Source: Verrucomicrobia bacterium UBA3761 (GTDB lineage Bacteria; Verrucomicrobiota; Kiritimatiellia; RFP12; UBA1067). From it: a DNA stretch of 64,000 nucleotides. The notes beneath the pieces are model-generated. The model was not told the origin of the DNA. It saw nothing but the letters and a program-made list of their open reading frames with translations, and made no database searches. The stretch covers positions 5,478 to 69,477 of the forward strand of contig DFGB01000045.1 of NCBI GenBank assembly GCA_002371135.1, written 5' to 3'. A program made the position numbers and the translations under genes. Of this stretch, positions 4,440 to 62,130 are shown in pieces; the stretch's first letter is position 1; each line of letters opens with the position of its first letter.

Positions 4440-4680
4440 AAAGGGTGAAGAGGCCGCGCACGGGAGGACCGCGCTCATGCGCGGCCGAGGCAGGGAGCAA
4501 GAGATACGCTTGGCGCACAAGGAGGCGCGGCTTCAGCCGCGCAAAAACCAAAAGACGGTGCGCGGCTGAAGCCGCGCACCCCTGCTAGGGCATCCGCTTC
4601 GCGGACAGCCTTCGGCTGGGGGATATTCCTTGGCGTTAGTGGCCGCGGCTGACTGCCAACTGCCAACTGCTAACTTCCCA
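4440..4680. repeat. REP/BIME-like repeat cluster 1. It holds hairpins GCGCGGCT-TCA-AGCCGCGC at 4526..4543 and 4561..4578, one ~55-bp conserved unit B in reverse orientation at 4579..4636, and a CCAACTG tandem at 4655..4676.
   Basis: The sequence matches clusters at 11350, 20440 and 55790; the stem is a perfect 8-bp inverted repeat with a 3-nt loop, flanked by CAAGGAGG. Confidence 0.8.
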
Positions 4681-7571: not shown

Positions 7572-7577
7572 CGATTA

Positions 7578-7745
7578 GAGGGGAGAGAAATTTTCGATTT
7601 GCGATTTACGATTTGCGATTTTTATCTCCCTTGAGAGCGCAGAGTTCGCAGAGAATTTTTCGATTTCCGATTAAACCTCTGCGGCCTCTGCGTTCTCTGC
7701 GGGAGATAAAAATGGGAAATCGCAAATCGTAAATCGTAAATCGTA
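7578..7745. repeat. Nested tandem-heptamer palindrome. Outer arms (CGATTTG/CGATTTA)x4 and their complement (CAAATCG/TAAATCG)x4 enclose inner (CGCAGAG)x2 and (CTCTGCG)x3.
   Basis: Read directly from the sequence; the element lies between the stop of gene 7750..8580 and the start of the carboxypeptidase gene. Confidence 0.85.
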
Positions 7746-7749
7746 AATT

Positions 7750-11349: not shown

Positions 11350-11580
11350 GAGTGGGCGCTTGAACGTCAAGGAGGCGCGGCTTCAGCCGCGCCACGCTCG
11401 TTGTCGTCGCTAGGACGTGGCGCTCGGACGTGGCGCGGCTAAAGCCGCACCTCCTTGGCGCTAGGGCCGCGCACGAGGGGGCGCGAGGGGGGCGCTTGAA
11501 CGTCAAGGAGGCGCGGCTTTAGCCGCGCCACGCTCGTTGTCGTCGCTCGGGCGTGGCGCTAGGGCCGCGCGCGAGGGGGC
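11350..11580. repeat. REP/BIME-like repeat cluster 2: hairpins at 11375..11392, 11434..11451 (imperfect) and 11501..11518, with a ~57-bp direct repeat at 11355..11411 and 11482..11538.
   Basis: The motif GCGCTTGAACGTCAAGGAGGCGCGGCTT(C/T)AGCCGCGCCACGCTCGTTGTCGTCGCT occurs twice. Confidence 0.8.
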
Positions 11581-12716: not shown

Positions 12717-15035
12717 TTACAAATCGTTTATGCGGGTGACGTAAAAGCCTTTTTCACCGTCGATCGGCTCGAGGCTCGTCCATACGGTCGTGTAGTTCTC
12801 TTCATCGACCTCAACCTCGCCCGCGACAGGAATTTCCTCGCCGCCGAGTTCCTCCATGCGGCAGACGCGATATGTGGAGCCGGTCCTGTCGATGCCGTTG
12901 AAGACGAGTTCGAGGCGGCCATCGTCGAGAATCCTCATGCCGGTGAAGTTGAAGGGCTCGTCGACTTCCGGGTCGAGGCCGGCGAGGTAGACGTCGCCAA
13001 TCGTGTAGCCGAGGGCGCGGAGGCGCGAGAGCGTGGCAGGGGCGTTGGGGTCGAGGCCGAAGCCGCTGGAGCGCAGCCAGGCGACAGGGATGCCGTCGAT
13101 CGTGGCGGCCGCCGTCTCCGGCTCGTAGCCTTCGACCGTCTTGATGACATCATCAAGCTGGACCGTGCCGTGGACGGAGAGGGACGCGATCTGGTTCCTG
13201 CCAGCCCTGCAAGGATACCACGCACCCGGCGAGACGGGGTTCAAAGGCGAATGGACGCCGGAGGCGGTTTTGCAGGATTCGCCGTCGAGGCGCGGCTGGA
13301 CGAACACATCTCCCGCGGCGTTCGCCATGAGCTTGAACGAGACTCTAACCCAGTCGCCGTTTTCGTAGACCGTGTCGGAGAGCCGCACCCAGCCAGCCTT
13401 GCACAGGAAGAGCATGTGCCCGTCGTCGGCGCACATGAGAGCGCAGATGGAATCGTCGGCGTCGGAATCGTCCTCGTCGGGCTGACGCCTGCGCACCGTG
13501 AGCATCATCTCCACCATGTCGTTGCCGTTCGTGGTGCACGGGAAATCGCACGCGGCGAGGGTCTCGACGTCGAGGACCTGCGTGTGCGGATCGCGGAGCA
13601 TGGGCGTAGACAGCGCGGGGGTTTGGCGCGCGACGACCTCGCCGTCGCCGGTCCAGCGCCCGACTTCCCCATCCGCGACATCCGCGCCGGCGGGATACGA
13701 CTCGAAATTGTCGGCGAAATCGATTGGCGTCTCCACCGTCTCGCCTTCGGTCAGCACCCACTCGAACGTCGCATCTTCCGATACGGCGAACGAAGCGAGC
13801 GAACCGGAGCCCGTCGCCGCGCCGCATTCCCACGCGACATTCGTGCACACCGCCATGTTGTTCGTGTAGCAGGAGGCGTATTCGACGCCATCAAGCACGA
13901 CATCCACCGTCGCGCCGCCGGTGTACCTGTACGGTCCGCCGGAGATGCTCGCTACGCCGCATCCCGGCGCCTCGAAATCTAGCGTCCGCACGTCGATGCC
14001 GGTGAGCTTCATGGTCATCACCTTCTCAGTGCAATTCCCGCCGTCGGCTATGAGCACCAGCGTCACGGAGCCATCGTCAAGCCGAGGGCCGAGGCATATG
14101 CCTTCGTAGTTGGCCCAGCCAACATCCTCATCGAAAATCGCTCTCTTCTTGACTGGTGTATACTCGGCGTCCTTGAGCGAAGCAAACCCCGATATATCCG
14201 TCGCACCGACAGGCAAAACTTCGTATATACGCGTATAAAAAGTCGCGCCCCAGAAGTCGACGCCCCACAATGTCCTTTCAAGGACGAGAAGCGTTCCATC
14301 CGGCAAGGCCACCAACCCAGAAACGCCGCTCCGCCCTTGCGTTTTCCCGTTATAAACCCACGGATCGGTGCCTATCTTTTCCGTAAGATACGCCCACTGG
14401 CCCTTGGCAGTCCAATTATCCGCAGGGCTTTGGCGGGTGAAGCGAGTGAGCCGCACGACCGAACCTGCGGTTTTCGTCGAATTGGTGCCGTCGACTTTCA
14501 ACGCCTCTTCGTTCGCGGTCCACATCGTTTTGCCGTCGCCGGAAATCGTCAACGCCTCCAACGAGAAATTCCCGTAGTAGTTTTTCTGGATGGCGGGGAC
14601 TGGGGCGGAGCGCGTCATTTCGCCGGTGGTAGGATCGAACTCGCGAATCAAGGCGTTCTTCTCCTGGGAAATCCAGACGTTGCCGGATGCGGGGTCGTAT
14701 GCACAGCCCTCCATGTCATCTGATGACTCCATGACCACCCCTGCGCCGATTGTTATGTTGGTCTTCGCGAGCGAGCCGTCGGAAAGATTGATATCGAGCT
14801 TCAGAGGATACAATTTGTTATCGTTGTCGTCGACGGCGTAGAAAAGGTTGCCGCCGGCCCATGTGACGCCGCTGATCTGCTCCGCGCCGTATGTGCCGCT
14901 GGAAGGCCTCGTCGCCTCGCTGACCTTCACCGCCTTGAGCTCGGCGAAGGCGGAAAGGCATGCCGCACCGCAAATTGCGGCGGCAAACATGGTTGCAACG
15001 CCATTTCTGGCGTTAATATAGCAGGCAATGTTCAT
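12717..15035 (-). CDS. Hypothetical large secreted protein (about 772 aa, possible beta-propeller or lectin-like domains)
   Basis: The start was moved to MNIACYINARNGVATMFAAAICGAACLSAFA (signal peptide), because the ORF-track N-terminus is read through the TTGAAAAG repeat. No confident family assignment. Confidence 0.55.
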   Translation of the reverse strand: MNIACYINARNGVATMFAAAICGAACLSAFAELKAVKVSEATRPSSGTYGAEQISGVTWAGGNLFYAVDDNDNKLYPLKLDINLSDGSLAKTNITIGAGVVMESSDDMEGCAYDPASGNVWISQEKNALIREFDPTTGEMTRSAPVPAIQKNYYGNFSLEALTISGDGKTMWTANEEALKVDGTNSTKTAGSVVRLTRFTRQSPADNWTAKGQWAYLTEKIGTDPWVYNGKTQGRSGVSGLVALPDGTLLVLERTLWGVDFWGATFYTRIYEVLPVGATDISGFASLKDAEYTPVKKRAIFDEDVGWANYEGICLGPRLDDGSVTLVLIADGGNCTEKVMTMKLTGIDVRTLDFEAPGCGVASISGGPYRYTGGATVDVVLDGVEYASCYTNNMAVCTNVAWECGAATGSGSLASFAVSEDATFEWVLTEGETVETPIDFADNFESYPAGADVADGEVGRWTGDGEVVARQTPALSTPMLRDPHTQVLDVETLAACDFPCTTNGNDMVEMMLTVRRRQPDEDDSDADDSICALMCADDGHMLFLCKAGWVRLSDTVYENGDWVRVSFKLMANAAGDVFVQPRLDGESCKTASGVHSPLNPVSPGAWYPCRAGRNQIASLSVHGTVQLDDVIKTVEGYEPETAAATIDGIPVAWLRSSGFGLDPNAPATLSRLRALGYTIGDVYLAGLDPEVDEPFNFTGMRILDDGRLELVFNGIDRTGSTYRVCRMEELGGEEIPVAGEVEVDEENYTTVWTSLEPIDGEKGFYVTRINDL

Positions 15036-15148
15036 ATATTCCCCAAGTCGACGTCGAATATTATAGCACATCGCACAACGACTTTCAACTCCCCCAATAT
15101 TGCGTAGTTTCATTCCAAACTTGCATAATTCGCTCATACGGGAGGGGG

Positions 15149-15266
15149 AGTTGAAAAGTAAAAGGTTGAAAAGTTGAAAAGTAAAAAGCGCGGGAGGGCC
15201 ACGCCGCTTTGGAGACAGAGCCGTGCGTTTCAACTTTTCAACTTTTCAACTCTTCAACTTTTCAAC
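15149..15266. repeat. Tandem-heptamer palindrome: (GTTGAAAAG)n array, central spacer, (CTTTTCAAC)n array
   Basis: Read directly from the sequence. The element provides the last codons (VEKLKS) and TGA stop of the BASS transporter gene and creates false ORFs rich in FNFSTFQLF. Confidence 0.85.
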
Positions 15267-16235
15267 CATCTCTTCTCGGGCCCGCCGGGCGACGAGAAGG
15301 TTGAACACGCCTGCCATGAGCGCGCCGGAGATGGAGTGCCAGACGCAAGAGACGGCGGAGGCGACAGCGGCCTCGGGCATCGCGGGGAAGTGGCGCGCGG
15401 CGAGCACCGTCGCAAGGCCCGCGTTCTGCATGCCGACTTCGATCGAAATAGTACGCTTCTTCGCATCGGAGAACCGCGCCGCGACGCCGGTCAGGTAGCC
15501 CAGCGCGTAGCCGAGGCCGTTGTGCAAAAGGACGCCCGCGAACACGAGCGCGCCGCTCGACGCGAAGCGCTCGCCCTGCGCCGAGACTACACCGCCCACG
15601 ATCGCCGCGAGGGCCAGCACCGCCACGCCCGGCATCACTTTCATCGCTTCTCCGTATGCGCGCTTCTTGCCGTAGAGCGCGTTCAGCGCGAAACCGAGCG
15701 CCACGGGCGCGATAGTCACGTAGAGGATGCTCTTGAACATGCCCGCCGCGTCCACGTCCACGCTCTCGCCCGCGAGCCACATCATCAAAAGCGGCGTCAT
15801 CACAGGCGCGAGAAGAGTCGAGACCGTCGTCATCCCGACGGAAAACGCGACGTCCCCCTTGCAAAGGAAGCTCATGATGTTCGAAGAAACCCCGCCCGGA
15901 CAACACCCGACAAGGATGAGCCCCACTCCGACCGCCTTCGGCAGCCCCATCGCATGCACGAGAGTCCACGCGATGAGCGGCATGAGAGTATATTGCGCCG
16001 CCGCGCCGATTGCCATATCGAGCGGACGCGAGAGCAGGATGCGGAAGTCCTCGGCCTTGAGCGTCATGCCCATCGAGAGCATGATGACGCCGAGGATCGC
16101 GGTCTGCGTATCGCCGCGCACCCACGCGAACGTGCCCGGCGCGAAGAACGTCGCGACCGCGACCGCTGTTATGAACGCCGGCGTCCACTTCGCCAGCCAT
16201 GCCGATATCATTTGCAGTATTTTCATATCAGGGCA
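15246..16235 (-). CDS. Bile acid:sodium symporter (BASS/SBF) family transporter
   Basis: GLILVGCCPGGVSSNIMSFLCKGDVAFSVGMTTVSTLLAPVMTP is typical of PF01758; the start is set at MKILQMISAWLAKW. Confidence 0.8.
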   Translation of the reverse strand, partial: CPDMKILQMISAWLAKWTPAFITAVAVATFFAPGTFAWVRGDTQTAILGVIMLSMGMTLKAEDFRILLSRPLDMAIGAAAQYTLMPLIAWTLVHAMGLPKAVGVGLILVGCCPGGVSSNIMSFLCKGDVAFSVGMTTVSTLLAPVMTPLLMMWLAGESVDVDAAGMFKSILYVTIAPVALGFALNALYGKKRAYGEAMKVMPGVAVLALAAIVGGVVSAQGERFASSGALVFAGVLLHNGLGYALGYLTGVAARFSDAKKRTISIEVGMQNAGLATVLAARHFPAMPEAAVASAVSCVWHSISGALMAGVFNLLVARRAREEMVEKLKS

Positions 16236-16237
16236 TT

Positions 16238-17929
16238 TCAAACGAGCCAATTCTCCGCCTTGCGGGAGATAGCATCGTACCACGCTTGCTCGTCTTCAGC
16301 CTCGCTTGCGACAGTCATCGAATATTCACAAAAAGCCCGGACTTTGGCTGGGCTTGGCACGTAGCCGCAATTCTTCGCCTGTGTCAGCATTCCCGCGAAG
16401 CGATCCAGCGTCAACGGTATCACAACAGACTTGCCGCCGTAATGTTTGATGGGAATCCGGTGCAGCCCATAGAAATGCGAAATGGAACTTGGATTTATTG
16501 TCGGCGCGACAAAAAGGCAATATGCCGGCTTGCCGGTCTTTGCCTTAATATCGCCAAGATGTCTGGCCACGGGCTCGCCTTCGGCATCATACTGCCTGTT
16601 GCCCGACATAAGTGTCACTTCAACCGTGACGGTGAAATCGCCATAGTCGCAAATGATGTCTGCATTGTTGCCTGGCGCGGTGGAAAGTGGATTGCCGGCA
16701 TCGTCAAATGTGAAGTTGGCTTTTATATTGCCGCCATCCATCATGGTCATCGCACGCCAAGCGTTCCACTCAAGAGCAAGTGGCGGGTCGTAAACATATT
16801 TTGCTTTGATGTCTTTGAACACGCCAAGAATCTCATCGTATTTTGCAAACGACTTGAGCTCCGTGACCTGAGCGTCGATGACTGCGGCTCGCCGAGCCTC
16901 TTGTGCGTGTTTGATGCGTCGTTTGAGTTCATTCGCACTTTGCCTGCGCGCGTCAGACTCCGAATCGACAGCCCCGCTCCTTACAGCCTTCTTCAAAAGC
17001 GTTTTGCGGTCGTCTGTCAACAGTCTAGGCGCGTCTGCACAGTAAAGATGTTCACAATACGCCGCTTTGTCAACCACAAAAACCGGGTTTCGGTCGACAG
17101 TCCTCAGAATATACTCAACCTCGTCGCGCCGCGACTCGATGATTGAAATCGTCCGTCCCGGATTGCCAATCGTAACGAGACCTGTTGCGCGAAGATAGCG
17201 TACGCAAGCATCGGCATAATCGCGCATATTGCCCGCCTTGGTCTTGATGAATTTTTCAAGACTTGTTTCATGCGACTCGCGTGTCCGAATGCATCCAGAT
17301 GCAATTTCCTGCGCAAACATCGAAGAGACTATGCGCGAACGTTCGCTGCTCAAGAACTTTTTATATTGCCCCTTGCGCGCGACCTTCTCCACTCTGAACC
17401 GGCGAACGGCATCGACAATCGCATCGAAGTCGTGCCAGTCTGTCAGTTGCATGCCGAAGAGGCACAATTCATCAAATGCCAATCGCCCCAACGAATGAAC
17501 AAGCCGGAGAATCTCAAGGTATGGACGAACGCAAAACGTCCTTGCAATCTTCGGATTCGCGATGTGAAATGGCGATGGCAGCTGAAATTTAAGCAACTGC
17601 CGCAAGAGGGCTTCTTCCGCTAAATCTCCATCAAGAAAATTCGCCCCGGCGGATGTAATCGATATTGGGTCGAGATTGACGAATCCCAGAGCCTTGGGAC
17701 CGCGGGTTATGCGGTCTCTTGCGCTCAGAGCAGGGTCTTTCTGATTGTACTCGCCCTCAAATTCTGGAAGTTGGGCGAGACGTTTCATGAAAGAGGCTTG
17801 CAGCGTGGTGTTGGATACCCACCTCGCCCCTGCAAACTCGCGGACGAGCAATTCAATTTCCGGACGCATCTTGAATGGCGTCCTTGGCGATGTCACGAAG
17901 AACAGCGAAGGGCTCTTGATTTTCGCCAT
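16238..17929 (-). CDS. Putative type II restriction endonuclease (563 aa), partner of the Dam-type methyltransferase
   Basis: It follows the methyltransferase gene with 1 nt of spacing (TGAcATG), lies in a low-GC islet, and has no other recognisable family. The specificity is probably GATC-containing, inferred only from the Dam-like partner. Confidence 0.45.
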   Translation of the reverse strand: MAKIKSPSLFFVTSPRTPFKMRPEIELLVREFAGARWVSNTTLQASFMKRLAQLPEFEGEYNQKDPALSARDRITRGPKALGFVNLDPISITSAGANFLDGDLAEEALLRQLLKFQLPSPFHIANPKIARTFCVRPYLEILRLVHSLGRLAFDELCLFGMQLTDWHDFDAIVDAVRRFRVEKVARKGQYKKFLSSERSRIVSSMFAQEIASGCIRTRESHETSLEKFIKTKAGNMRDYADACVRYLRATGLVTIGNPGRTISIIESRRDEVEYILRTVDRNPVFVVDKAAYCEHLYCADAPRLLTDDRKTLLKKAVRSGAVDSESDARRQSANELKRRIKHAQEARRAAVIDAQVTELKSFAKYDEILGVFKDIKAKYVYDPPLALEWNAWRAMTMMDGGNIKANFTFDDAGNPLSTAPGNNADIICDYGDFTVTVEVTLMSGNRQYDAEGEPVARHLGDIKAKTGKPAYCLFVAPTINPSSISHFYGLHRIPIKHYGGKSVVIPLTLDRFAGMLTQAKNCGYVPSPAKVRAFCEYSMTVASEAEDEQAWYDAISRKAENWLV

Positions 17930-17930
17930 G

Positions 17931-18788
17931 TCACACCTCGTAGTTTGTGACGACGTAGTGCGTTGCTTTGGAATGGAATCGATTGCGGATATTTACCGCG
18001 TAATCCTTTGCGTATTCAAACTTCACGAGGTCGCCATAAAGTTCCTCCGTCAATGGTGTATGACCAATGATCATCAACGCACGACAACGCAATTCCCGAA
18101 AAAGTTTGGCAAGCCGGCGATGCTCGGCCTCGTCAAATCCATTTGCCAGTTCCTGATTGCCATAATCGTTGAAAACACAATCATACGGCGGATCAAGATA
18201 CATAAAATCATTCTCTCCCGCCCGCCTGAACGATTCTTCGTAATCTGCGCACAGAATCTCCGTGCGTTGCAGAAGTCGGGAATGTTCGCGTGTGACAAGT
18301 CTGGTGTTGAAATTCTCGTATCTGCCGAACGGGACATTGAAATGCCCCTGCGCATTGAACCGTATCATACCAGAGTATGACGTCTTGTTAATGAAAAAAT
18401 ATAGCGCAGCCCGGGAATATTGCGCCGGAGCAATTCCATTGTATTGGTCGCGAAGTCTATAATACAATTCTTCGTTTGCGTTGGGAATCCGATCTCCCGG
18501 ATGCATTTTCTTTCTCTCTTTGTAATCCGCCTGATTGCGCACATAAATGGCTTCGATTTCTGCCAACTCTCGCGAAAGTTCATCAAAACGATTTCGAACA
18601 TCCCTGTAGAAGTTTATCAAGGGTTCATTTATGTCCCCGATAACCGCATGTTGCGGTGCAAGAGCAAAAAAAGTCGCCCCGCCCCCTACGAAAGGCTCAT
18701 AGTACGTTTCATAATTCTGCGGAATAAACCGTTCATACCGAGGAATCTCCTTGGACTTTCCACCACGATATTTGACAAGTGGTTTCAA
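17931..18788 (-). CDS. DNA adenine methyltransferase (Dam / D12-class N6-adenine methyltransferase)
   Basis: It starts with TTG at 18788 and a strong RBS AAAGGAAAGGAGA; the N-terminus MKPLVKYRGGKSKE matches the Dam start, and EPFVGGGA and DPPY motifs follow. The longer ORF-track N-terminus is rejected. Confidence 0.85.
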   Translation of the reverse strand: MKPLVKYRGGKSKEIPRYERFIPQNYETYYEPFVGGGATFFALAPQHAVIGDINEPLINFYRDVRNRFDELSRELAEIEAIYVRNQADYKERKKMHPGDRIPNANEELYYRLRDQYNGIAPAQYSRAALYFFINKTSYSGMIRFNAQGHFNVPFGRYENFNTRLVTREHSRLLQRTEILCADYEESFRRAGENDFMYLDPPYDCVFNDYGNQELANGFDEAEHRRLAKLFRELRCRALMIIGHTPLTEELYGDLVKFEYAKDYAVNIRNRFHSKATHYVVTNYEV

Positions 18789-19006
18789 GCCGGATCTCCT
18801 TTCCTTTGCAAGGCCGATACAAGGTGCCGCGGCCATCGCAGCAAGCATCCACCCAACGCGCTGCAAAAACTCCCCGCGCGTGATGCCTTGGCTTCTTTGG
18901 CACGATTTTGCCGACGTTCCCATTTCTTCTGTTCTCAAGCCTTTCATAGCCACGACACGAATGCAATATACAATCACAACGCCTATTGCGATTCATGCAC
19001 AACATA

Positions 19007-19138: not shown

Positions 19139-19214
19139 GGCGAGATAGCTCAGTTGGTAGAGCGCAGGACTCATAAGCCTAAGGTCAAGGGTTCGATCCC
19201 CTTTCTCGCCACCA
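19139..19214 (+). tRNA. tRNA with anticodon CAT (Met, or possibly Ile2/lysidine), 76 nt including the encoded CCA
   Basis: GGCGAGATAGCTCAGTTGGTAGAGC.. anticodon loop CTCATAA ..GGTTCGATCC..TCTCGCCACCA has good acceptor, D and T stems. The anticodon stem has only 3 Watson-Crick pairs (CAGGA/GCCTA). Confidence 0.8.
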
Positions 19215-20439: not shown

Positions 20440-20890
20440 CGGCTGGCAAGCGAGAGGCCCAAAAATTTACGCCAGCGCCAAGGAATATCCCCCAGCCGAA
20501 GGCTGTCCCAAGAAGCGGATGCCCTAGCGCCAAGGAGGCGCGGCTTTAGCCGCGCTAGTCGAGCGAGGGGGGTGCGCGGGAGGGCCGCGCTTCAGCGCGG
20601 CCGAGTTATGGTGCGGCTTGAGCGCCAAGGAATATCCCCCAGCCGAAGGCTGTCCGCGAAGCGGATGCCCTAGCAGGGGTGCGCGGCTTCAGCCGCGCAT
20701 AGACGAACGAAGGGGGGTGCGCGGCTAAAGCCGCGCCTCCTTGGCGCAGACGAAGGTCGAGACTGGCGCAGACGAAGGTCGAGACTGGCGCAAGCGAAGG
20801 CCTCGCTTGGGCGAGAGTTTCAAGTTGCTTCGGGGGCACTCGCCAAACGGTCCGGGAGGGGTGTTTCGCCCCCTTTACGGGGATTGCGCG
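20440..20890. repeat. REP/BIME-like repeat cluster 3: unit B at 20463..20520 and 20616..20676; hairpins at 20538..20555, 20682..20699 and 20719..20736; a 22-bp direct repeat CAGACGAAGGTCGAGACTGGCG x2 at 20746..20789; and the palindrome GGCCGCGCTTCAGCGCGGCC at 20586..20605
   Basis: Read directly from the sequence; it shares peptides with false ORFs 20392..20673 and 55722..55913. Confidence 0.85.
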
Positions 20891-21499: not shown

Positions 21500-21680
21500 T
21501 TGAAAAATAAAGTCTACTTTTCAAGCTTTCCATTTTTTATCGCAGAGACCCGAGAGGCGCAGAGTACGCAGAGAGAAAATTTTTTCGATTGTTTGATTGT
21601 TTTAAGCCTCTGCGTACTCGGCGTCTCGGCGTCTCTGCGATAAAAAATGAAAGGCTTGAAGCAATCGAAAATTCTCTTTG
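21500..21680. repeat. Tandem-heptamer palindrome: TTTTTTATCGCAGAGAC..(CGCAGAG)..centre TTTTTTCGATTGTTTGATTGTTTT..GTCTCTGCGATAAAAAA, plus a small TTGAAAA..TTTTCAA hairpin at 21500..21526
   Basis: It uses the same CGCAGAG/CGATTTG heptamers as the element at 7578..7745 and lies at the 3' end of the regulator gene. Confidence 0.85.
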
Positions 21681-21890: not shown

Positions 21891-21920
21891 TTGACCCGGC
21901 GCGAGGCAAAATGGTATAAT
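21891..21920 (+). promoter_or_regulatory. Sigma70-type promoter TTGACC-N18-TGGTATAAT for ilvC
   Basis: A perfect -35 and an extended -10 lie 39 nt upstream of the ATG. Confidence 0.6.
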
Positions 21921-23068: not shown

Positions 23069-23082
23069 AAGACATTTAGCAT

Positions 23083-23225
23083 TGCATTTTGCCATTTAGG
23101 GACCGATCCCGTCGCACCGGTACAAATGAAACAATGGACAAATGGCAAAATGCAATGCCAAATGCCAAATGCAAAATATAAAATGCAACGGGGAAATGGA
23201 GAACGGTGAAATGCCAAATGCCAGG
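23083..23225. repeat. Palindrome with GCAAAAT/GCCAAAT heptamer arrays: perfect 19-bp arms ATTTAGCATTGCATTTTGCCATTT / AAATGGCAAAATGCAATGCCAAAT, then (GCCAAAT/GCAAAAT) tandems
   Basis: It lies immediately downstream of ilvC, and related half-elements occur at 24395..24426 and 25650..25727. Confidence 0.8.
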
Positions 23226-24389: not shown

Positions 24390-24394
24390 CATGG

Positions 24395-24426
24395 AGATGG
24401 TTGGCATTTGGCATTGCATTGGGTGC
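24395..24426. repeat. ATTTGGC-type half-palindrome (GGTTGGCATTTGGCATTGCATTGGGTGCC)
   Basis: It is related to the repeats at 23083..23225 and 25650..25727. Confidence 0.6.
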
Positions 24427-24643
24427 CAGGTGGCATAAAAAAAATCGGCTCTTCGCACATTTTGGCGGATGCCATGAAGAACAAGCTTGAAGAGATGAAG
24501 CGGGCTATGAGGCGTGGGAATGAGGGATGAGAATGGAGTGTATGGCAGGCTCGGCAGTTTATGCCGACGGAAATCTACTTTATTTTACGGACGATAAACT
24601 TCCTTTTGCGGGAGGATAAATTTCCGCAGAACATGAAGGAGGG

Positions 24644-25645
24644 ATGTCGATGAACTTTATTACCATAGAAGAGATAGCCGCAAAATGGGGCATAACGCCC
24701 CGCCAAGCGCGTTCGTATTGCGCCGGCAATCGCATCCCTGGGGCTATCTTGGAACACGGAGAATGGCGGATACCGGCCGATGCCGGCAAACCGGAACGCA
24801 AGCGGCGCCGGACTTTCCCCACGACCATCCTCGGAGTTCTGGAGGCAGAACGAAGTTCGCGTATTTCCGGCGGACTCTATCATCGTCTCCAGATTGACCT
24901 CGCCTACAACTCAAACCATATCGAGGGAAGCCGTCTTACACACGAGCAGACACGGTGGATCTTCGAGACGAAGACAATAGGCGAAATGGCTTCGGACATC
25001 CCCGTGGATGACATAATCGAGACGGTCAACCATTTCCGCGCCGTCGACAAGGTTATCATGACTGCCACTTCCGCATTGACCGAAGGATACATCAAAAGGC
25101 TTCATGAAATACTCAAAAGCGGCACCTCCGACAGCCGGAAGGACTGGTTTGCCGTCGGAGAATACAAACGGCTGGACAATGTAGTCGGCGAAATGGAGAC
25201 ATGCCCCGCCAAGGACGTACACCATGAGATGGCGAAACTGCTTGCGTGGTGGAAACCGGTCGAAAAAACGTTCGAGAACCTGCTGGATCTTCACGTCCGG
25301 TTCGAGCAGATTCATCCGTTTCAAGATGGCAACGGACGCGTCGGGAGGCTTGTCCTTCTCAAGGAATGCCTGAAATACAACATCACGCCGTTTGTAATCG
25401 CGGAGAATTTCAAACAGTTCTACTATCTCGGGCTTCAGGACTGGCGGCAAGGGCGTCACACGCGGCTCATGGACACTTGCCGCACTGGACAGGACGTGTT
25501 CATCCTTGGATTGCGACAGTTTGGGCATGTGAAGCTTGCGGAAAAAGCCGAGGCCGGTCAAAAGGTCCCGGAAAGACGGAGTGACAGGAAGCAGGAAAGT
25601 GTTTTGATGGAAACAACATTGACAACAGACACTGCCATGCAATAG
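24644..25645 (+). CDS. Fic/DOC-family protein with an N-terminal helix-turn-helix (excisionase/MerR-like) domain
   Basis: It carries the Fic motif HPFQDGNGRVGR and the N-terminal segment ITIEEIAAKWGITPRQARSYC; GC is about 55%, lower than the flanks. Confidence 0.85.
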   Translation: MSMNFITIEEIAAKWGITPRQARSYCAGNRIPGAILEHGEWRIPADAGKPERKRRRTFPTTILGVLEAERSSRISGGLYHRLQIDLAYNSNHIEGSRLTHEQTRWIFETKTIGEMASDIPVDDIIETVNHFRAVDKVIMTATSALTEGYIKRLHEILKSGTSDSRKDWFAVGEYKRLDNVVGEMETCPAKDVHHEMAKLLAWWKPVEKTFENLLDLHVRFEQIHPFQDGNGRVGRLVLLKECLKYNITPFVIAENFKQFYYLGLQDWRQGRHTRLMDTCRTGQDVFILGLRQFGHVKLAEKAEAGQKVPERRSDRKQESVLMETTLTTDTAMQ

Positions 25646-25649
25646 TTTT

Positions 25650-25727
25650 TCAACACAGAGGCACAGAGTTTATCGATTTTATGCCATTGAAATGATGCAA
25701 TGCCAAATGCTAAATGCCAAATAACCG
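25650..25727. repeat. Short repeat block with CACAGAG/TCGATTT and GCCAAATG/GCTAAATG units
   Basis: It mixes heptamers seen at 7578, 21500 and 23083. Confidence 0.6.
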
Positions 25728-34246: not shown

Positions 34247-34330
34247 CGTTTGTCGCGTTTTGTCGCGCCGTTTTGTCGCAGTGCGACATCAATGCGCGAC
34301 ATTTGCAAGCCAATGTGCGACATACAGCGC
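34247..34330. repeat. Tandem-heptamer palindrome (TTTGTCGCG)x3 followed by (TGCGACAT/GCGCGACAT)x3
   Basis: Read directly from the sequence; it lies upstream of dnaK, overlaps the 3' end of gene 34289..34990, and is not a CIRCE element. Confidence 0.8.
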
Positions 34331-35788: not shown

Positions 35789-35834
35789 AGCGTCGCATCC
35801 TCTCACGCGAGGCTCCAATTCGCGTGGAAAGCTA

Positions 35835-35870
35835 CGGCACGAGGCCATCAGGCCCCGTGCCGCTTTTTTA
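35835..35870 (+). terminator. Rho-independent terminator CGGCACGAGGCC-ATCA-GGCCCCGTGCCG followed by TTTTTT
   Basis: A hairpin with a U-tract after the CBM48 gene. Confidence 0.8.
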
Positions 35871-35968
35871 AAGGTTGAAAAGTTGAAAGGTTGAAAGGTT
35901 GAAAAGTACAGGGATGACGCGCTTTTCAACTTTTCAACTTTTGAACTTTTCAACTTTTGAACAACTGC
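35871..35968. repeat. Tandem-heptamer palindrome (GGTTGAAAAG/GGTTGAAAG)x4 and (CTTTTCAAC/CTTTTGAAC)x4, of the same heptamer family as 15149..15266
   Basis: It sits between convergent genes and supplies the last codons (LFKS) and TGA stop of valS. Confidence 0.85.
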
Positions 35969-38703: not shown

Positions 38704-38825
38704 GAGGGAAGAGGGAAGAGGGAAGAGGGAAGAGGGAAGAGGGAAGGGGGAAATGTGAAAATGTCTTTGCCGCAGTCGGGCGGATGCCGCCAACCGCCGC
38801 ATCATTTTCACATTTCCACATTTTC
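38704..38825. repeat. (GAGGGAA)x6 microsatellite followed by the palindrome GGGGGAAATGTGAAAATG..CATTTTCACATTTCC
   Basis: It lies in the divergent region between the valS start and the GH43 start; a REP-like hairpin GGGCCGCGCTTCAGCACGGCGCC follows at about 38843. Confidence 0.8.
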
Positions 38826-38917: not shown

Positions 38918-40273
38918 ATGAAAACCATTCTCATTTTCACGTTGGCGGCTTTGTCCGGCGCGGCCCAGGCGGCGGACGGTGCCCTCATGCCGATCATCCA
39001 GACGAAGTTCACGGCCGACCCCGCGCCGTATGTCCACGATGGCGTCGTATATCTCTACACCACCCACGACGAAGACGACGCCGACGGTTTCAAGATGAAG
39101 GATTGGCTTCTCTACACTTCCACCGACATGGTGAACTGGCGCGACTGCGGCGCCGTCGCCTCGCTCGCCGATTTCCCGTGGGCCCGGAACAAGGAGAACG
39201 GCGCGTGGGCGCTGCAGGTGATCGAACGCGGCGGCAAGTGGTTCATGTATTGCCCGCTGCACGGCAACGGCATCGGCGTGCTCGTCGCCGATTCGCCTTA
39301 CGGCCCCTTCAAGGATCCTCTCGGCCATCCGCTCGTCTGGCAGAAGGAGCATTGGAACGACATCGACCCGACCGTGTGGATCGACGACGACGGCCAGGCC
39401 TATCTCTATTGGGGCAACCCGCACCTCTACGGCGTCAAACTGAACGAAGACATGATTTCGTATTCCGGCCAAATCGTCCAGTTCCCCAAGATACGCGACT
39501 ACCAGGAAGGGCCGTGGTTCTACAAGCGCAACGGACGCTACTACCTCGCATTCGCCTCCACCTGCTGCCCCGAGGGGATTGGATATGCGATGTCCGACGC
39601 GCCGTTCGGCCCGTGGGAATACAAGGGCCACATAATGGACCACACGCCAAAGACGCGCGGCAACCATCCCGGCATAATCGACTACAAAGGCAAGAGCTAC
39701 TGCTTCGGTCTCAACTACGACATCCTCCGCCTCTCCACCGATACGCACCACGAACGGCGCAGCGTCTCCGTGCAGGAAATGGAATACCGCGACGACGGCA
39801 CGATTCCCGAACTTCCGTACTTCAAGTCCGGCAAGTTGACGCAAATAGAGCCGTTCGATCCATACCGCCGCGTCGAAGCAGAAACGATGGCGTGGGGATA
39901 CGGGCTCAAGACGCGTCCCGACGTCCCCCGCACACTGCCGCAAAACCAGATCGTATTTGACGCCGACGATGGCGAATACATCCTCGTAAAAGGCGTGGAC
40001 TTCGCCGGCGGCGCGAAAGAAATGACGCTATCCATCAAGCCGCTCGCGCCTGGCGCCTCGATTGAAATCAGGCTCGACGCGCCGGACGGCGCGCTCGCCG
40101 GCAAGGTTGCGTTCGCGGAAGCGGCGGACGGATTTGAAACATTCACGACGCCGCTCGAAAACGCCTCCGGCGTGCACGACCTCTATTTCGTCTTCCGCTC
40201 GGGCGTCCCCGGCGGCAAGAACCTCCTCGAATTCGACTGGTGGCGTATCGCGCAAATAGGAAGCAGGAAGTAG
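38918..40273 (+). CDS. Glycoside hydrolase family 43 (beta-xylosidase / alpha-L-arabinofuranosidase-like) with a C-terminal carbohydrate-binding module
   Basis: A signal peptide and the GH43 catalytic region ..FTADPAPYVHDGVVYLYTTHDE.. ; a C-terminal beta-sandwich (CBM6-like). Confidence 0.8.
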   Translation: MKTILIFTLAALSGAAQAADGALMPIIQTKFTADPAPYVHDGVVYLYTTHDEDDADGFKMKDWLLYTSTDMVNWRDCGAVASLADFPWARNKENGAWALQVIERGGKWFMYCPLHGNGIGVLVADSPYGPFKDPLGHPLVWQKEHWNDIDPTVWIDDDGQAYLYWGNPHLYGVKLNEDMISYSGQIVQFPKIRDYQEGPWFYKRNGRYYLAFASTCCPEGIGYAMSDAPFGPWEYKGHIMDHTPKTRGNHPGIIDYKGKSYCFGLNYDILRLSTDTHHERRSVSVQEMEYRDDGTIPELPYFKSGKLTQIEPFDPYRRVEAETMAWGYGLKTRPDVPRTLPQNQIVFDADDGEYILVKGVDFAGGAKEMTLSIKPLAPGASIEIRLDAPDGALAGKVAFAEAADGFETFTTPLENASGVHDLYFVFRSGVPGGKNLLEFDWWRIAQIGSRK

Positions 40274-40337
40274 GAAGTAGAAAATTTGCCGCCCGGGCGT
40301 GTCGTACGCATTATCTCCTACTTCCTACCTCCTACTT
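40258..40337. repeat. Tandem-heptamer palindrome (GGAAGCA/GGAAGTA)x3 .. (CTACTTCC/CTACCTCC)x3
   Basis: It sits between convergent GH43 and pectinesterase genes and contains the TAG stop of GH43 and the last codons of the pectinesterase. Confidence 0.8.
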
Positions 40338-41222
40338 GATTTTTATCCACGGAAGGCGGCGCGATGTTTCGGCGCCCGTTCCGGTGCAGTTGTATTCGGC
40401 GAAAAACGCCGTCTTGTCGGTGCCGTCGTTTGGACGCCACTGGCTCCAGCCCTCGGGCTTGATGCAGTCGTCCATTACGCAACCGTCAAACACCACTTGC
40501 GCGTGCGGCCGCCAGGGGCGCCCCAGGAGCGTCTTGACGCCGGGCGCGGCGGTGATGCGGCAACGGCGGAAGAGGAAACCCTCGCGCCCCTCAGGCGTCG
40601 CCGCCGCCGTGATATATCCGCGCAGGAGACTGCGTATCTCGCAGCGGTCGAACACCGCGCGCGACTGGCCGAATATAAAATCGACCGTCCCCTCTATCAA
40701 ACACTCCTCGAAATGCTGTCCGCAATAGCGCGTATACTCGGGCTCTTTCGCCCACTCCTTGACGCCCTGCGAGACATACAGGGTGTCCTGATGGCCGGAG
40801 ATGCGGCACTTGGCCACTTCCACGCCGTCGCCCTCGATGTGCAGCGCGACGGCCTGGCCGACGCCGCGTCCGCCGGCGGCGACATTCGCGTCCGACGCCG
40901 TGTTGCGTATCCAAAGGCCCGCAAGCCGCACATCGTCGGCCTCGACTTTCATCGTCCACGTGCGGAACGTGCCAAGCGCCTCGCCGGCGGAATTCGTGAG
41001 CGAGGCATAGTCGCCCCACTCCACCACCGCCTCGCCCGGCCCTTCGTGCACGATGGCGAGAGCGCGCTTCTCGCGCGGAATCGTCACCTTCTCGCGCCAG
41101 ACGCCATCGGGAAGCGTAATCATATCGCCGGGCTTGGCGGCGTCGATCATCTCCTGCAGCGTCGCCGCGGCGGCGGACGAAACCGCGGCGACCGCCGCCA
41201 GCATCGCGAGCGCCGCCTTCAC
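40332..41222 (-). CDS. Pectin methylesterase (carbohydrate esterase family 8)
   Basis: It has a signal peptide and the CE8 motifs GHQDTLY, DFIFG and LGRPW; a probable GTG start overlaps the paaK stop (GTGA). Confidence 0.85.
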   Translation of the reverse strand: MKAALAMLAAVAAVSSAAAATLQEMIDAAKPGDMITLPDGVWREKVTIPREKRALAIVHEGPGEAVVEWGDYASLTNSAGEALGTFRTWTMKVEADDVRLAGLWIRNTASDANVAAGGRGVGQAVALHIEGDGVEVAKCRISGHQDTLYVSQGVKEWAKEPEYTRYCGQHFEECLIEGTVDFIFGQSRAVFDRCEIRSLLRGYITAAATPEGREGFLFRRCRITAAPGVKTLLGRPWRPHAQVVFDGCVMDDCIKPEGWSQWRPNDGTDKTAFFAEYNCTGTGAETSRRLPWIKIK

Positions 41223-49120: not shown

Positions 49121-49777
49121 CTATTCGCCGCCAAGAGCCGCGAGACGCCGCTGCAAGCGCTCGATTTCCCCGCGCAGCCGCGCATTCTCTTCCTTGAGAC
49201 TGGCGATTTCCCCGTTCTGCGCCGTGCGCCTCCCGAGCCGCACGGCCGTCATGCGCTCGCGAATGCCGCCGTTCTCCCGGAAATCATCCTGCTGCGCATC
49301 GATCAACTGCTGCAGCATCCACATCGTCTGGGAAATCACTGTTATCATCGCATTGCAGAATTCCTCCTTGCCGCATCCTTCCAGAAACACCGCCCACCCG
49401 TCCCACTTGGAATGTTCCGCCGCGAACTTCCGCAGCTTCGGCGTCCTCGAATGCCCTGCACCCCAGCGTTCGAGACGATCGAACTTCAGGCAGTCGATAT
49501 AATCTTCGAGAAGCTCGCCAAGCGATGCACGCGCCACATTCGTAAGCTTCAATTGCGTCTCGAGACTTGTGGCGGCCGCCTCGCTGCCCTCGACGATATT
49601 CTGCTTGCAGCTCCTCGCCGCCTGTACCATCTGGTCGACCGTGCGATCCCCGTACTTTGGCAGAAACCGCCGGCAAAATAGCTGCGTCGCCTGGCATATC
49701 ATATCGCTCTTATCGTAGACGATCAGCTTCCGGTATCCGCCGTGCGGATGGATAATCTGTGGATTTCCTGTGCTCAT
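49121..49777 (-). CDS. Four-helix-bundle protein (TIGR02436-like) with a C-terminal coiled-coil extension
   Basis: YRKLIVYDKSDMICQATQLFC..QNIVEGSEAAATS..ASLGELLED matches the four-helix-bundle family pattern. Confidence 0.5.
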   Translation of the reverse strand: MSTGNPQIIHPHGGYRKLIVYDKSDMICQATQLFCRRFLPKYGDRTVDQMVQAARSCKQNIVEGSEAAATSLETQLKLTNVARASLGELLEDYIDCLKFDRLERWGAGHSRTPKLRKFAAEHSKWDGWAVFLEGCGKEEFCNAMITVISQTMWMLQQLIDAQQDDFRENGGIRERMTAVRLGRRTAQNGEIASLKEENARLRGEIERLQRRLAALGGE

Positions 49778-49831
49778 ACTGCGATTTTACCACAATCCCC
49801 CAACTTTGCGCAAGGGGGAAATTTGAGATTT

Positions 49832-50030
49832 TTTGGGAGGGTTGGGAGGGTTGGGAGAATTGGGATAAATTGGGAGGATTGGGATTATTGGGAAAATTAG
49901 GCGCTATAGACTCTCCCAATCCCAACTCTCCCAATCTATCCCAATCCTCCCAACTATCCCAACCCTCCCACAAAAACAAGCGGGCGGGGTTGCCCCCGCC
50001 CGCGCTTCGGGAGGGACGCGCTTCAGCGCG
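49832..50030. repeat. Tandem-heptamer palindrome (TTGGGAG/TTGGGAT)x7 .. (CTCCCAA/ATCCCAA)x7, followed by the hairpins GCGGGCGGGGTTGCCCCCGCCCGC (49978..50001) and the REP-like GACGCGCTTCAGCGCGTC (50013..50030)
   Basis: Read directly from the sequence; it lies between the giant gene stop and the four-helix gene start. Confidence 0.85.
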
Positions 50031-55789: not shown

Positions 55790-56105
55790 CGCGGACCTTC
55801 CGTATACGGCCCTAGCGCCAAGGAATATCCCCCAGCGGTACGAGCTCGAAACGCGGCTTGAGCGCCAAGGAATATCCCCCAGCCGAAGGCTGTCCGCGAA
55901 GCGGATGCCCTAGCAGGTGTGCGCGGCTTTAGCCGCGCACACCCTCGTTCGACTATGCGCGGCTGAAGCCGCGCCTCCTTGGCGATAGGCCTGCCGCACC
56001 GCCTGCGCTTGACTGGCGCAGAAACGGTGCTCGGCTGGCGCAGAGAAGACGCTCGGCTGGCGCAGAGTCGGAAGTTCGCTAGGGGGCGGTCGGCAATCGG
56101 TCGGG
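55790..56105. repeat. REP/BIME-like repeat cluster 4: unit B at about 55858..55915 with a partial copy at 55816..55835, and hairpins at 55921..55938 and 55957..55974
   Basis: The sequence is nearly identical to cluster 3. Confidence 0.85.
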
Positions 56106-59514: not shown

Positions 59515-59571
59515 GGGAGGGCCGCGCTGGAAGCTCTAGATATTCTAGAATTTCCAGGACTTCCAGAGCCT

Positions 59572-62094: not shown

Positions 62095-62130
62095 AGAGCA
62101 GTTGGCGGTTGGTAGTTGGCAGTTGGTCCT
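62095..62130. repeat. (AGTTGGC/GGTTGGT)x4 tandem heptamer array, which is the inverse complement of the CCAACTG array at 4655..4676
   Basis: Read directly from the sequence. Confidence 0.6.

Follow-up and report, generated by a model that had tools for sequence, protein, structure and literature searches.

What are the palindromes of short tandem units that lie between the genes of contig DFGB01000045.1 of Verrucomicrobia bacterium UBA3761, and how did they arise? The stretch of 64,000 nt analysed here (the window) had been initially annotated with at least nine intergenic loci, each consisting of tandem copies of a 7-9-nt unit, a central spacer and a tandem array of the reverse-complement unit. 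We found that these tandem-unit hairpins are a real, statistically overwhelming and fast-evolving feature of the window. The explanation that we prefer, with about even confidence, is that they are hypermutable repeat elements of intergenic DNA, specific to this lineage, which became palindromic through inverted duplication and in some cases spread as composite copies. Long perfect or near-perfect palindromes are usually held to be unstable in bacteria. Those of the window are frequent, young and turning over between strains, and would offer a natural system for hairpin gain and loss through slippage and inverted duplication.

Census of the tandem-unit elements

Loci were located by Tandem Repeats Finder (short-period arrays) and by an inverted-repeat search, and the locus 34249-34325 was added by reading the sequence. 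Tandem Repeats Finder reported short-period arrays at all loci named by the initial annotation. Pairs of forward array, spacer and reverse-complement array were returned by the inverted-repeat search at 7590/7717, 15154/15228, 21520/21631, 23073/23140, 35864/35922, 40254/40313 and 49829/49918. The annotated design is present at 7590, 15149, 21520, 23073, 34249, 35864, 40254 and 49829.

Eight long inverted repeats (arms of at least 24 nt, about 85% or more complementary, loops of at most 150 nt) were found in the whole window, compared with none in each of 20 shuffles preserving dinucleotides. Six of them are tandem-unit palindromes with 7-9-nt units, and two come from a separate family resembling repetitive extragenic palindromic (REP) sequences. 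The pairing of arrays was assessed on the Tandem Repeats Finder arrays of period 6-10, with a partner match of at least 79% over 24 nt within 200 nt. By this measure 12 of 18 short-period arrays have a reverse-complement partner, and none has one once the flanks are shuffled. Folding of both strands as RNA, a check that the initial annotation had proposed, predicted stems of 25-58 bp on either strand and gave hairpins far more stable than expected (z = -6.8 to -14.6 at the five strongest loci, -2.9 to -6.3 at the weaker loci 23069, 34240 and 40250). Folds with DNA parameters gave z = -6.3, -11.3, -7.0 and -2.6. The elements, designated A to M, are as follows.

Element A, 7572..7749: nested palindrome occupying the full gap from the stop of a phosphotransferase system (PTS)-EIIA-like gene (7750) to the dacC-like start (7571); RNA fold z = -13.0 (- strand) and -11.2 (+ strand)
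Element A, outer arms: (CGATTTG)4 at 7590-7621 and (CAAATCG)4 at 7717-7748
Element A, unique linker next to the outer arms: TATCTCCC / GGGAGATA
Element A, inner arms: CGCAGAG at 7638-7655 and CTCTGCG at 7676-7702
Element B, 15149..15266: about four copies of the 8-mer GTTGAAAA (15149-15182), a 45-nt GC-rich spacer and about five copies of TTTTCAAC (15228-15266); fold z = -6.8 and -9.3, with an inner terminator-like hairpin at 15205-15187
Element C, 21520..21660: 30-nt palindrome arms 21520-21549 / 21631-21660, 93% complementary, with inner CGCAGAG / CTCKGCG arrays; fold z = -9.2 and -10.8
Element D, 23073..23223: arms 23073-23097 / 23140-23164, 96% complementary, with GCATT/GCCAAAT-type units
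Element E, 24401..24440: left inverted arm (GCATTTGGCATTGCAT...TGGCATAAAA) beside an inserted gene with Fic and helix-turn-helix (HTH) domains (24650-25645); resembles D and F
Element F, 25654..25722: two copies of CACAGAG and ATCGATTTT, then the right inverted arm (AATGCCAAATGCTAAATGCCAAAT) of the Fic cassette
Element G, 34249..34325: three copies of TTGTCGCG, then (GCGACAT)3 (arms TTGTCGC / GCGACA); weak hairpin, fold z = -2.9
Element H, 35864..35964: (GTTGAAAR)4 (35864-35906), a 15-nt loop and (CTTTTSAA)5 (35922-35964), with convergent genes either side; fold z = -9.3 and -7.1
Element I, 38704..38818: one-sided (GAGGGAA)7 at 38704-38752 and a separate 15-bp hairpin GGAAATGTGAAAATG / CATTTTCACATTTCC (38749-38818) with a GC-rich loop
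Element J, 40254..40344: (AGGAAGY)3 (40254-40285), a 27-nt spacer and (ACTTCCT)3 (40313-40344), 78% complementary; fold z = -3.3 and -6.3, the + strand then continuing with UUUUU
Element K, 49829..49975: the largest palindrome, with seven plus seven nine-nt units (TTGGGAGRR / YYCTCCCAA); arms 49829-49886 / 49918-49975 of 58 nt, 88% complementary; fold z = -14.6
Element L, 62098..62126: one-sided (GCAGTTG)4, directly upstream of the start of a 524-aa gene
Element M, 4652..4675: one-sided (ACTGCCA)3.4, reverse complement of the element L unit

The nesting described for 7578..7745, with outer CGATTTG and inner CGCAGAG arms, is borne out in element A. Other details had to be revised. The hairpins had been called perfect, but their stems are 78-96% complementary, and the single central spacer, given as 30-70 bp, ranges from 15 to 95 nt. 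Element I, annotated as a palindromic locus at 38704, is not a unit palindrome: no TTCCCTC partner array was found, and the 15-bp hairpin alongside is unrelated. The half-elements placed at 24395 and 25650 do contain arrays (E and F), but these are not standalone halves. They are mutual inverted partners of about 50 bp, of the GCCAAAT family, on either side of a 1.3-kb Fic cassette. The half-element at 62095 is indeed a one-sided array, element L, but its unit is not solitary, since it recurs 57 kb off in element M.

The elements take up the intergenic gaps almost entirely. Elements A, D and G lie between co-directional genes, in the order stop codon, element and next start codon. At A, 17 nt are left before the ATG, and no extended -10 box or consensus promoter was seen there. 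At D, extra direct AAATGCC units continue beyond the hairpin up to the next gene's start codon (23211), and G lies upstream of dnaK, overlapping the 3' end of the preceding gene. Elements B and C are situated 3' of one gene and 5' of the promoter of the following gene: B downstream of an SBF transporter gene and upstream of the promoter 15088-15060 (-), its right arm overlapping the final codons of the upstream gene; C downstream of a response-regulator gene and upstream of the ilvC promoter (21891-21920). Element J is found between the convergent GH43 and pectinesterase genes, both stop codons being inside its arms. Element K is flanked on one side by the terminator of a 1807-aa gene (50003-49980, -) and on the other by the following gene's promoter (-10 at 49792, -). 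Element I belongs to a divergent promoter region, where its array abuts the extended -10 box of valS (38697, -).

The right arm of element H contains the valS stop codon (35950). The last valS codons also lie within the element (35950-35964), and the encoded C-terminus reads ...LFKS*, compared with ...LFA* or ...LFAN* in relatives. The array has thus remodelled the 3' end of an essential gene.

Unit number in close strains

The number of units differs between close strains, a feature of contingency loci, at elements H, A, K and I. For element H, contigs with 95.4-99.7% nucleotide identity to the window and encoding an identical CBM48 protein have left/right arms of 4/5, 4/4, 3/4 and 5/4 units. 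The 5' arm of element A has four or three units among strains and its 3' arm is constant. Element K has 7+7 units in the window and 11+6 in strain L238 (97.4% identity), and element I has seven units in the window and about 4.5 in strain L224 (95.4% identity). Ten conspecific contigs show no variation in element G over the compared part, from the dnaK start to 34294, which covers the complete TTGTCGC arm (three units) and one GCGACA unit, the first; the other two, distal GCGACA units lie beyond it. Orthologous one-sided arrays elsewhere have 5 and 7 units at 85% identity, and about 17 and 5 units at 94% identity.

The changes concern whole units, and the arms change independently where both could be compared (H, A and K). 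This pattern is the mark of replication slippage, as the initial annotation had supposed. Concerted or compensatory evolution would not give such independent arm changes. These comparisons show the first step of the mechanism that we propose, in which intergenic arrays of 7-9-nt units gain and lose whole units between strains, apparently by slippage.

Origin of the palindromes

An allele of element A in strain L235, whose flanks are 95.9% identical, is 123 nt long and has the outer arms, but its inner array is a direct (CACAGAGG)4 only. Relative to this form, the window allele has 57 nt more, and these are the reverse complement of the inner array, linker and outer array that lie upstream. The 57-nt segment is bounded by 12-nt direct repeats, AAATCGAAAA(A)TT. 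Judged from the sequences, the two alleles may be related either by inverted duplication or by the loss of an arm via deletion between the direct repeats.

The inverted-repeat search revealed that the unique linkers are palindromic too (7622-7630 / 7701-7709; 21520-21549 / 21631-21660). In element K, moreover, unit variants are mirrored in register (0.88, compared with at most 0.70 at shifted registers). These two observations suggest that whole composite segments were copied in inverted orientation, and that the arms are not two arrays which arose separately. The template-switch origin proposed at first gains support from element A, where alleles differ by a reverse complement of adjacent upstream sequence. 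In the second step of the mechanism, an array with its adjacent unique sequence would be copied inverted beside itself by fold-back or template-switch synthesis. A long palindrome would result, with the stretch between the switch points as its loop, and deletion between direct repeats could remove an arm again. This step is supported by one allele pair and by the anatomy of the elements; for the rest, we infer it.

Distribution in relatives and metagenomes

In the comparison with related genomes, which had been suggested as a check, elements D, E and F are missing at 90-94% IlvC identity, and D is present, in part, in a strain of 97% nucleotide identity, which indicates a young age. Between ilvC and the next gene, those relatives have 12-80 bp without an element, and the window has 142 bp with element D. 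At the following junction the relatives have 7-19 bp, and the window has 1.34 kb made up of the Fic gene and elements E and F. Relatives with 80-83% identity in valyl-tRNA synthetase (ValRS) lack elements H and I and keep the valS promoter. The contig of the 97% strain ends within element D, after the left arm and some of the loop. This left arm has a G instead of the window's A, and this G pairs perfectly with the window's right arm.

The density of arrays and the share of paired arrays were as follows.

Window: 28 arrays per 100 kb, 67% paired
Close relatives (84 kb): 16.6 arrays per 100 kb, 0 of 14 paired
Unrelated bacteria (1.29 Mb): 4.4 arrays per 100 kb, 5% paired

Relatives carry one-sided arrays and low-complexity intergenic stretches, for example terminator-(CGGGGAA)8-promoter in contig L091. 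In L089, a relative with 93% IlvC identity, an intergenic region of 1.2 kb (14449-15645) is crowded with short arrays that differ from one another (GGAGTTTT, CCGGATATT, and the palindromic unit GGGGCAAATTGCCCC with a period of 22 nt) and also contains an (AAC)5...(GTT)4 hairpin. This region indicates that the low-complexity tendency is common to a close relative.

Three tandem copies of GTTGAAAR were found in at least 120 metagenome contigs, mostly with 55-69% G+C among the matches listed. From these, 80 contigs were analysed, and 14% of their 240 arrays were paired. The same design is seen as clear palindromes in L104, L115, L124, L155, L175, L158, L173 and L202. According to this census, arrays are not confined to the species of the window, but the high share of palindromes is its speciality.

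Some of the contigs show further arrangements. L161 (1.3 kb), L162 (2.0 kb) and L169 (2.2 kb) are low-GC contigs (41-46%) made up nearly entirely of successive 8-nt arrays, with different units and in some cases higher-order repeats. Palindromes of the CGACA/TGTCG type occur in L142 (1290-1400), in L173 (1520-1640) and in the window (34249-34325), those of L142 and L173 being opposite in polarity to element G. In the orthologous contigs L127 and L165, the site of the L142 hairpin is occupied by a GTTGAAAR array, so a replacement of one element type by another has taken place there. In L104 (700-910), a GTTGAAAR palindrome has one arm in the 5' leader of a minus-strand open reading frame and the other in its signal-peptide codons, with the start codon enclosed in the loop; the L173 orthologue has just two proto-units in the coding part.

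Spread between loci and possible mobility

As stated in the initial annotation, several loci have units in common. Elements B and H, and in part C, contain GTTGAAAA; A and C have CGCAGAG in common, L and M have GCAGTTG, and D, E and F have GCCAAAT. The sharing extends to composite pieces. Elements A and C have a whole composite core in common, with inverted termini CATTTTT(T)ATC, placed within different outer arms, and in a composite alignment the core of C is a paralogue of the inner part of A. Composite motifs are also common to D, E and F. Contigs L158 and L173 share the same arms and about 10 nt of boundary in non-orthologous contexts with different flanks, the loops being 75 and 14 nt long. 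The third step of the mechanism is the spread of composite pieces to other intergenic sites, with the outcome that loci share units and even whole cores. The compared sequences show such spread for three families, two of them in the window.

Spread of this kind might also come from mobility. The elements would then be non-autonomous foldback-type mobile elements, similar to miniature inverted-repeat transposable elements (MITEs), with inverted repeats of tandem sub-repeats, inserted into intergenic DNA and often into the loops of existing hairpins, and occasionally carrying or trapping a gene. We consider this possible but rather unlikely. Terminal inverted repeats, as expected of MITE or foldback elements, were found in the form of arms of 25-58 nt and the termini of A and C. 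Dispersed related copies number two or three per family in 64 kb, in addition to the L158/L173 pair. The A/C core with its conserved inverted termini, nested in different outer arms, and the arms with boundary common to L158 and L173 at non-orthologous places are what insertion would give. The Fic gene, which is absent from relatives at this site, has D-family arms of about 50 bp on either side, in inverted orientation. The presence or absence of elements between close relatives and the recurrence of units across many contigs point in the same direction.

A further instance of bracketing was observed outside the window. In L173 (3340-3843), a gene for a 127-aa protein of family PF05635 (23S rRNA intervening-sequence protein; E = 8.5e-35) lies exactly between inverted GTTGAAAR arrays, an arrangement that would favour mobility. 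Members of this family are known for residing in hairpin-bounded intervening sequences that are removed by RNase III. The gene adjoining palindrome K (49121-49777) has a weak, below-cutoff match to PF05635.

However, no target-site duplication was recognised at D, E/F or A in comparison with empty orthologous sites, whose flanks have diverged too far, and no transposase is encoded near any element within the window. Most loci have a unit of their own, and slippage explains the changes in unit number without transposition. Arrays with the same unit bracket genes in direct orientation 14 times and in inverted orientation four times, so bracketing may arise by chance. On this count, gene cassettes inside palindromes were rejected as a general rule. 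Because of these counts and the lack of a target-site duplication or transposase, mobility is kept as an alternative and not as the conclusion.

Possible function

For elements produced by slippage, inverted duplication and spread, a fourth step may be proposed, in which they would be transcribed and fold into RNA stems of 25-60 bp in intercistronic or 3'-untranslated (3'-UTR) positions. The stems could act as exonuclease barriers or as RNase III-type processing sites, their strength drifting with the number of units. Confidence in such a barrier or processing role is low. Several elements fill stop-to-start gaps or overlap stop codons, and they are probably transcribed for this reason. GTTGAAAR arrays of other contigs likewise occupy the space from stop to start codon, leaving 5-27 nt before the ATG. 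Arrays adjoin 3' ends in 46 cases and 5' ends in 29, with four convergent contexts and no divergent one. There is no strand preference relative to the flanking genes, 13 arrays reading GUUGAAAR and nine YUUUCAAC. A predicted role as RNA 3'-end or processing structure is plausible for about half of the loci.

Several points weigh against the explanation that we prefer. Among the arm mismatches, of which 23 of 35 are transitions, a G-U wobble bias on the transcribed strand was sought and none was found (9 vs 10). The independent change of unit number in the two arms gives no sign of selection for matched RNA pairing, and RNA-level selection on pairing was rejected on both grounds. The allele change at element A is unpolarised, and deletion between its 12-nt direct repeats explains it equally well. 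Element K may hardly be transcribed, since it lies between a strong terminator and the next promoter, and element I sits in a promoter region. Every functional step is one that we infer. Units of the GTTGAAAR, CACAGAG and CGACA types recur in many contigs of 30% to 71% G+C, which random local slippage alone does not predict and which hints at a sequence-specific function or horizontal spread. The independence of the arms, the missing RNA-strand signal and the position of K suggest that much of the phenomenon is mutational and neutral, or selfish, rather than adaptive.

The role proposed in the initial annotation, that of giant bidirectional intrinsic terminators or terminator extensions, here with a GC-rich centre and A-rich and U-rich arms, fits some of the loci. 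Elements B, H and J adjoin the 3' ends of genes, the last two in convergent gaps, and have stop codons within their arms. B holds a terminator-like GC hairpin followed by a U-rich arm, J has its run of UUUUU on the + strand, in every strict GTTGAAAR pair the A-rich arm lies 5' of the U-rich one, and the arrays favour 3' ends. However, a canonical terminator (35831-35870, +) lies immediately 5' of H and another adjoins K. Both are GC-rich with U-tracts, so H and K are not needed for termination. Most of the hairpins have no 3' U-tract, and the usual definition of an intrinsic terminator is fitted just by J (+ strand) and by the inner hairpin of B; the elements are therefore not canonical terminators. 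The arms of A, D and the 23073 type are U-rich 5' and A-rich 3', which is the wrong polarity. A and D lie within apparent operons, where termination would silence the downstream gene, G is likewise between co-directional genes, and I is at a promoter. As a general role, termination is unlikely and was set aside. A polarity rule, by which the TTG-bearing, G+T-rich arm is always 5', holds for seven of eight window hairpins and for all strict GTTGAAAR pairs. It was not adopted, because the CGACA-type hairpins of L142 and L173 are opposite to element G.

The elements could instead be phase-variable (contingency) switches, in which the number of units sets promoter spacing or the UTR structure of the flanking genes. 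The variation between strains would agree with this, above all at element I, where (GAGGGAA)n abuts the valS -10 box and has seven or about 4.5 units, and the hmw genes of Haemophilus influenzae provide a precedent. The flanking genes, however, are mostly housekeeping ones (valS, dnaK, ilvC, dacC) and not genes for surface or host-interaction functions, and many elements are at 3' ends. We regard such switching as quite unlikely.

Protein binding to DNA was also considered, with the arrays as operators for cooperative heptad or octad binders of the ribbon-helix-helix type or as nucleoid-protein sites. A periodicity of 7-9 bp in direct and inverted orientation is the arrangement of heptad and octad operators (omega, ParG, MetJ). 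The limited vocabulary of units recurring across contigs, the absence of strand bias relative to transcription (13 vs 9), the lack of an RNA-strand signal in the arm mismatches and the -35-box-like TTGnnn in several units would be consistent with binding. Against it, the many units would need many different binders, free gain and loss of units and presence or absence of whole elements argue against tight regulation, and no candidate binder is encoded beside the elements, which makes this role very unlikely. A sponge for CsrA (GGA), motifs resembling FtsK-orienting polar sequences (KOPS) or Chi, and similarity to a CRISPR 8-nt tag were dropped since they fit few units only.

Short-read contigs frequently end inside elements, as repeats would lead one to expect (L002 starts at 21660, L003 ends at 23120, L233 breaks at 7719, and L229 and L230 break inside H). 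An assembly or synthetic artefact is nevertheless practically excluded, as contigs of the same strain from other assemblers and several samples gave 100% identity for elements A, C to F, I to J and K (L001, L002, L233, L237 and L240), so that the absence from independent assemblies which would have spoken for an artefact did not appear, and diverged strains hold the same elements with whole-unit differences.

Other features of the window

The nearest relatives of ValRS and IlvC are encoded in metagenome-assembled genomes labelled Kiritimatiellae or Lentisphaerae, some of them named as rumen-derived. Judged by sequence, the host is a Kiritimatiellae-like uncultured gut or rumen lineage. The genes flanking the elements are ordinary (dacC-like, PTS-EIIA-like, ilvC, groES/EL, dnaK, valS, GH43 and pectinesterase). 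Promoters carry a strong extended -10 box, TGnTAnAAT, often with TTGACC 17 nt upstream, and have short leaders. As 14 of its 16 occurrences are intergenic, this box marks transcription starts in the lineage. Examples are given here.

Extended -10 promoters: 15088-15060, 21891-21920, 38697, 43393-43364, 45553-45525, 55750-55721 and 59514-59486

The separate GC-rich REP-like hairpin family (GCGCGGCTTYAGCCGCGC; (CAAGGAGG)CGCGGCTTYAGCCGCGC) is found at 4518-4584, 11365-11532 and 20527-20747. It forms clusters of alternating orientation, like bacterial interspersed mosaic elements (BIMEs), and is unrelated to the tandem-unit elements. A short motif akin to it, CCTTCGGCTGGGGG, occurs at 20489-20502, 20636-20649 and 55876-55889. 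Tandem repeats of 22 nt in 2.7-2.8 copies were found at 20742-20800 (TGGCGCAGACGAAGGTCGAGAC) and 56006-56067 (CGCTCGGCTGGCGCAGAGAAGA), in long intergenic regions near REP-like motifs. An overlapping palindrome, GCGCTGGAAGCTCTAGATATTCTAGAATTTCCAGGACTTCCAGAGC (59524-59569), lies just upstream of the promoter 59514-59486 and may be an operator.

A low-GC island (16238-18977, -; about 52-53% vs 61%) encodes an AlwI-family restriction endonuclease and a D12-class N6-adenine methyltransferase. It adjoins tRNA-Met (19139-19214) and is probably a horizontally acquired restriction-modification system. The insert with the Fic/DOC and HTH gene (24390-25727) has lower G+C at third codon positions (0.63) and is located between a 392-aa hypothetical gene and a Na+/H+ exchanger gene. 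A metagenome scan with the 392-aa protein gave no relatives, and an exact-sequence look-up of the iron-repressor protein gave no record.

Comparison with known systems

In agreement with the initial annotation, the elements do not belong to the REP, BIME, enterobacterial repetitive intergenic consensus (ERIC) or clustered regularly interspaced short palindromic repeat (CRISPR) classes. Rfam gave tRNA-Met only at gathering thresholds, and at E <= 0.1 just sub-threshold microRNA-precursor models on K and D, which are generic long-hairpin matches. REPs have one consensus of 20-40 bp per genome without internal tandem units, and are thought to stabilise upstream mRNA. Like REP, BIME and REPIN sequences, the window elements are intergenic and hairpin-forming, often at 3' ends or between cistrons. 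They do not have one conserved palindrome of 20-40 bp; an all-vs-all comparison gave several unrelated unit families without a common consensus. A CRISPR array has a constant repeat of 23-50 nt and unique spacers, whereas the units here are 7-9 nt long and contiguous, with a single central spacer per locus. A literature search for the tandem unit strings gave no match, one for Kiritimatiellae and repeats gave nothing relevant, and in the literature searched we could not find a bacterial description of the tandem-unit hairpin architecture.

The Borg tandem repeats are pervasive, recently formed and fast-evolving direct repeats at many sites of one lineage (PMC9879509). The window elements share with them the independent rise at many sites of one lineage and the rarity in relatives. 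Borg repeats differ in belonging to archaeal extrachromosomal elements, in being direct only and without inverted pairing, and in lying in coding regions in many cases.

For transcribed window elements, the closest tested precedent and best functional model, by analogy, is the 5'-UTR of H. influenzae hmw1A, where a heptamer repeat is one arm of a long hairpin which is cleaved by RNase III and tunes expression (PMC12721329). In both cases a (7-nt)n repeat forms the arm of a long RNA hairpin, a predicted one in the window, and the number of units varies. The hmw1A hairpin is a single locus before an adhesin gene, and its right arm is a G-rich non-repeat region and not an inverted array. It has been demonstrated by experiment, whereas the window elements are known from sequence and mostly stand at 3' ends or between housekeeping genes. 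If transcribed, dozens to hundreds of tunable double-stranded RNA (dsRNA) stems between housekeeping genes would make an unrecognised level of control in an abundant uncultured lineage.

The best structural analogue is offered by the eukaryotic Foldback elements (Drosophila FB, Galileo, Tetris), which have inverted arms of short tandem sub-repeats (PMC4079207, PMC3573991), and the resemblance is structural only. In both, arm length varies with the number of sub-repeats, the variable centre sometimes contains genes, and families share sub-repeat motifs. Foldback elements are of kilobase scale, show target-site duplications and in some cases have a known transposase; no such feature was found for the window elements. 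A prokaryotic Foldback counterpart in rumen or gut Kiritimatiellae can be put forward only tentatively, and we rate it as fairly improbable: small hairpin families would colonise intergenic DNA and hairpin loops, sometimes bracket small accessory genes (the Fic gene here, the PF05635 gene in L173), be created and spread by fold-back (template-switch) synthesis or a mobilisation system, and serve as tunable dsRNA processing sites when transcribed. Should they be mobile, they would be the first of the foldback type to be described from prokaryotes. In practice, the elements break short-read assemblies and are ready-made, highly discriminating strain markers.

Closest in kind are the short tandemly repeated repetitive (STRR) sequences of cyanobacteria and the TAACTGA arrays of Beggiatoaceae, cyanobacteria and Bacteroidetes, which are intergenic heptamer direct repeats (PMC4679880). 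Like these, the window arrays have tandem units of about 7 nt recurring at many loci, nearly all intergenic and near start or stop codons, in two to many copies, with one unit found in many contigs over a wide range of G+C and different units side by side. STRR and TAACTGA arrays consist of a single unit in one orientation, and in the Maribeggiatoa genome 169 direct sets of TAACTGA compare with one inverted set (PMC4679880). In the window, by contrast, two thirds of the arrays (12 of 18) are inverted-paired into hairpins of 25-60 bp, the units are of many kinds, and often 8 or 9 nt long. The nearest kind of element is thus the intergenic short-unit array of the STRR and TAACTGA type, here organised as foldback palindromes.

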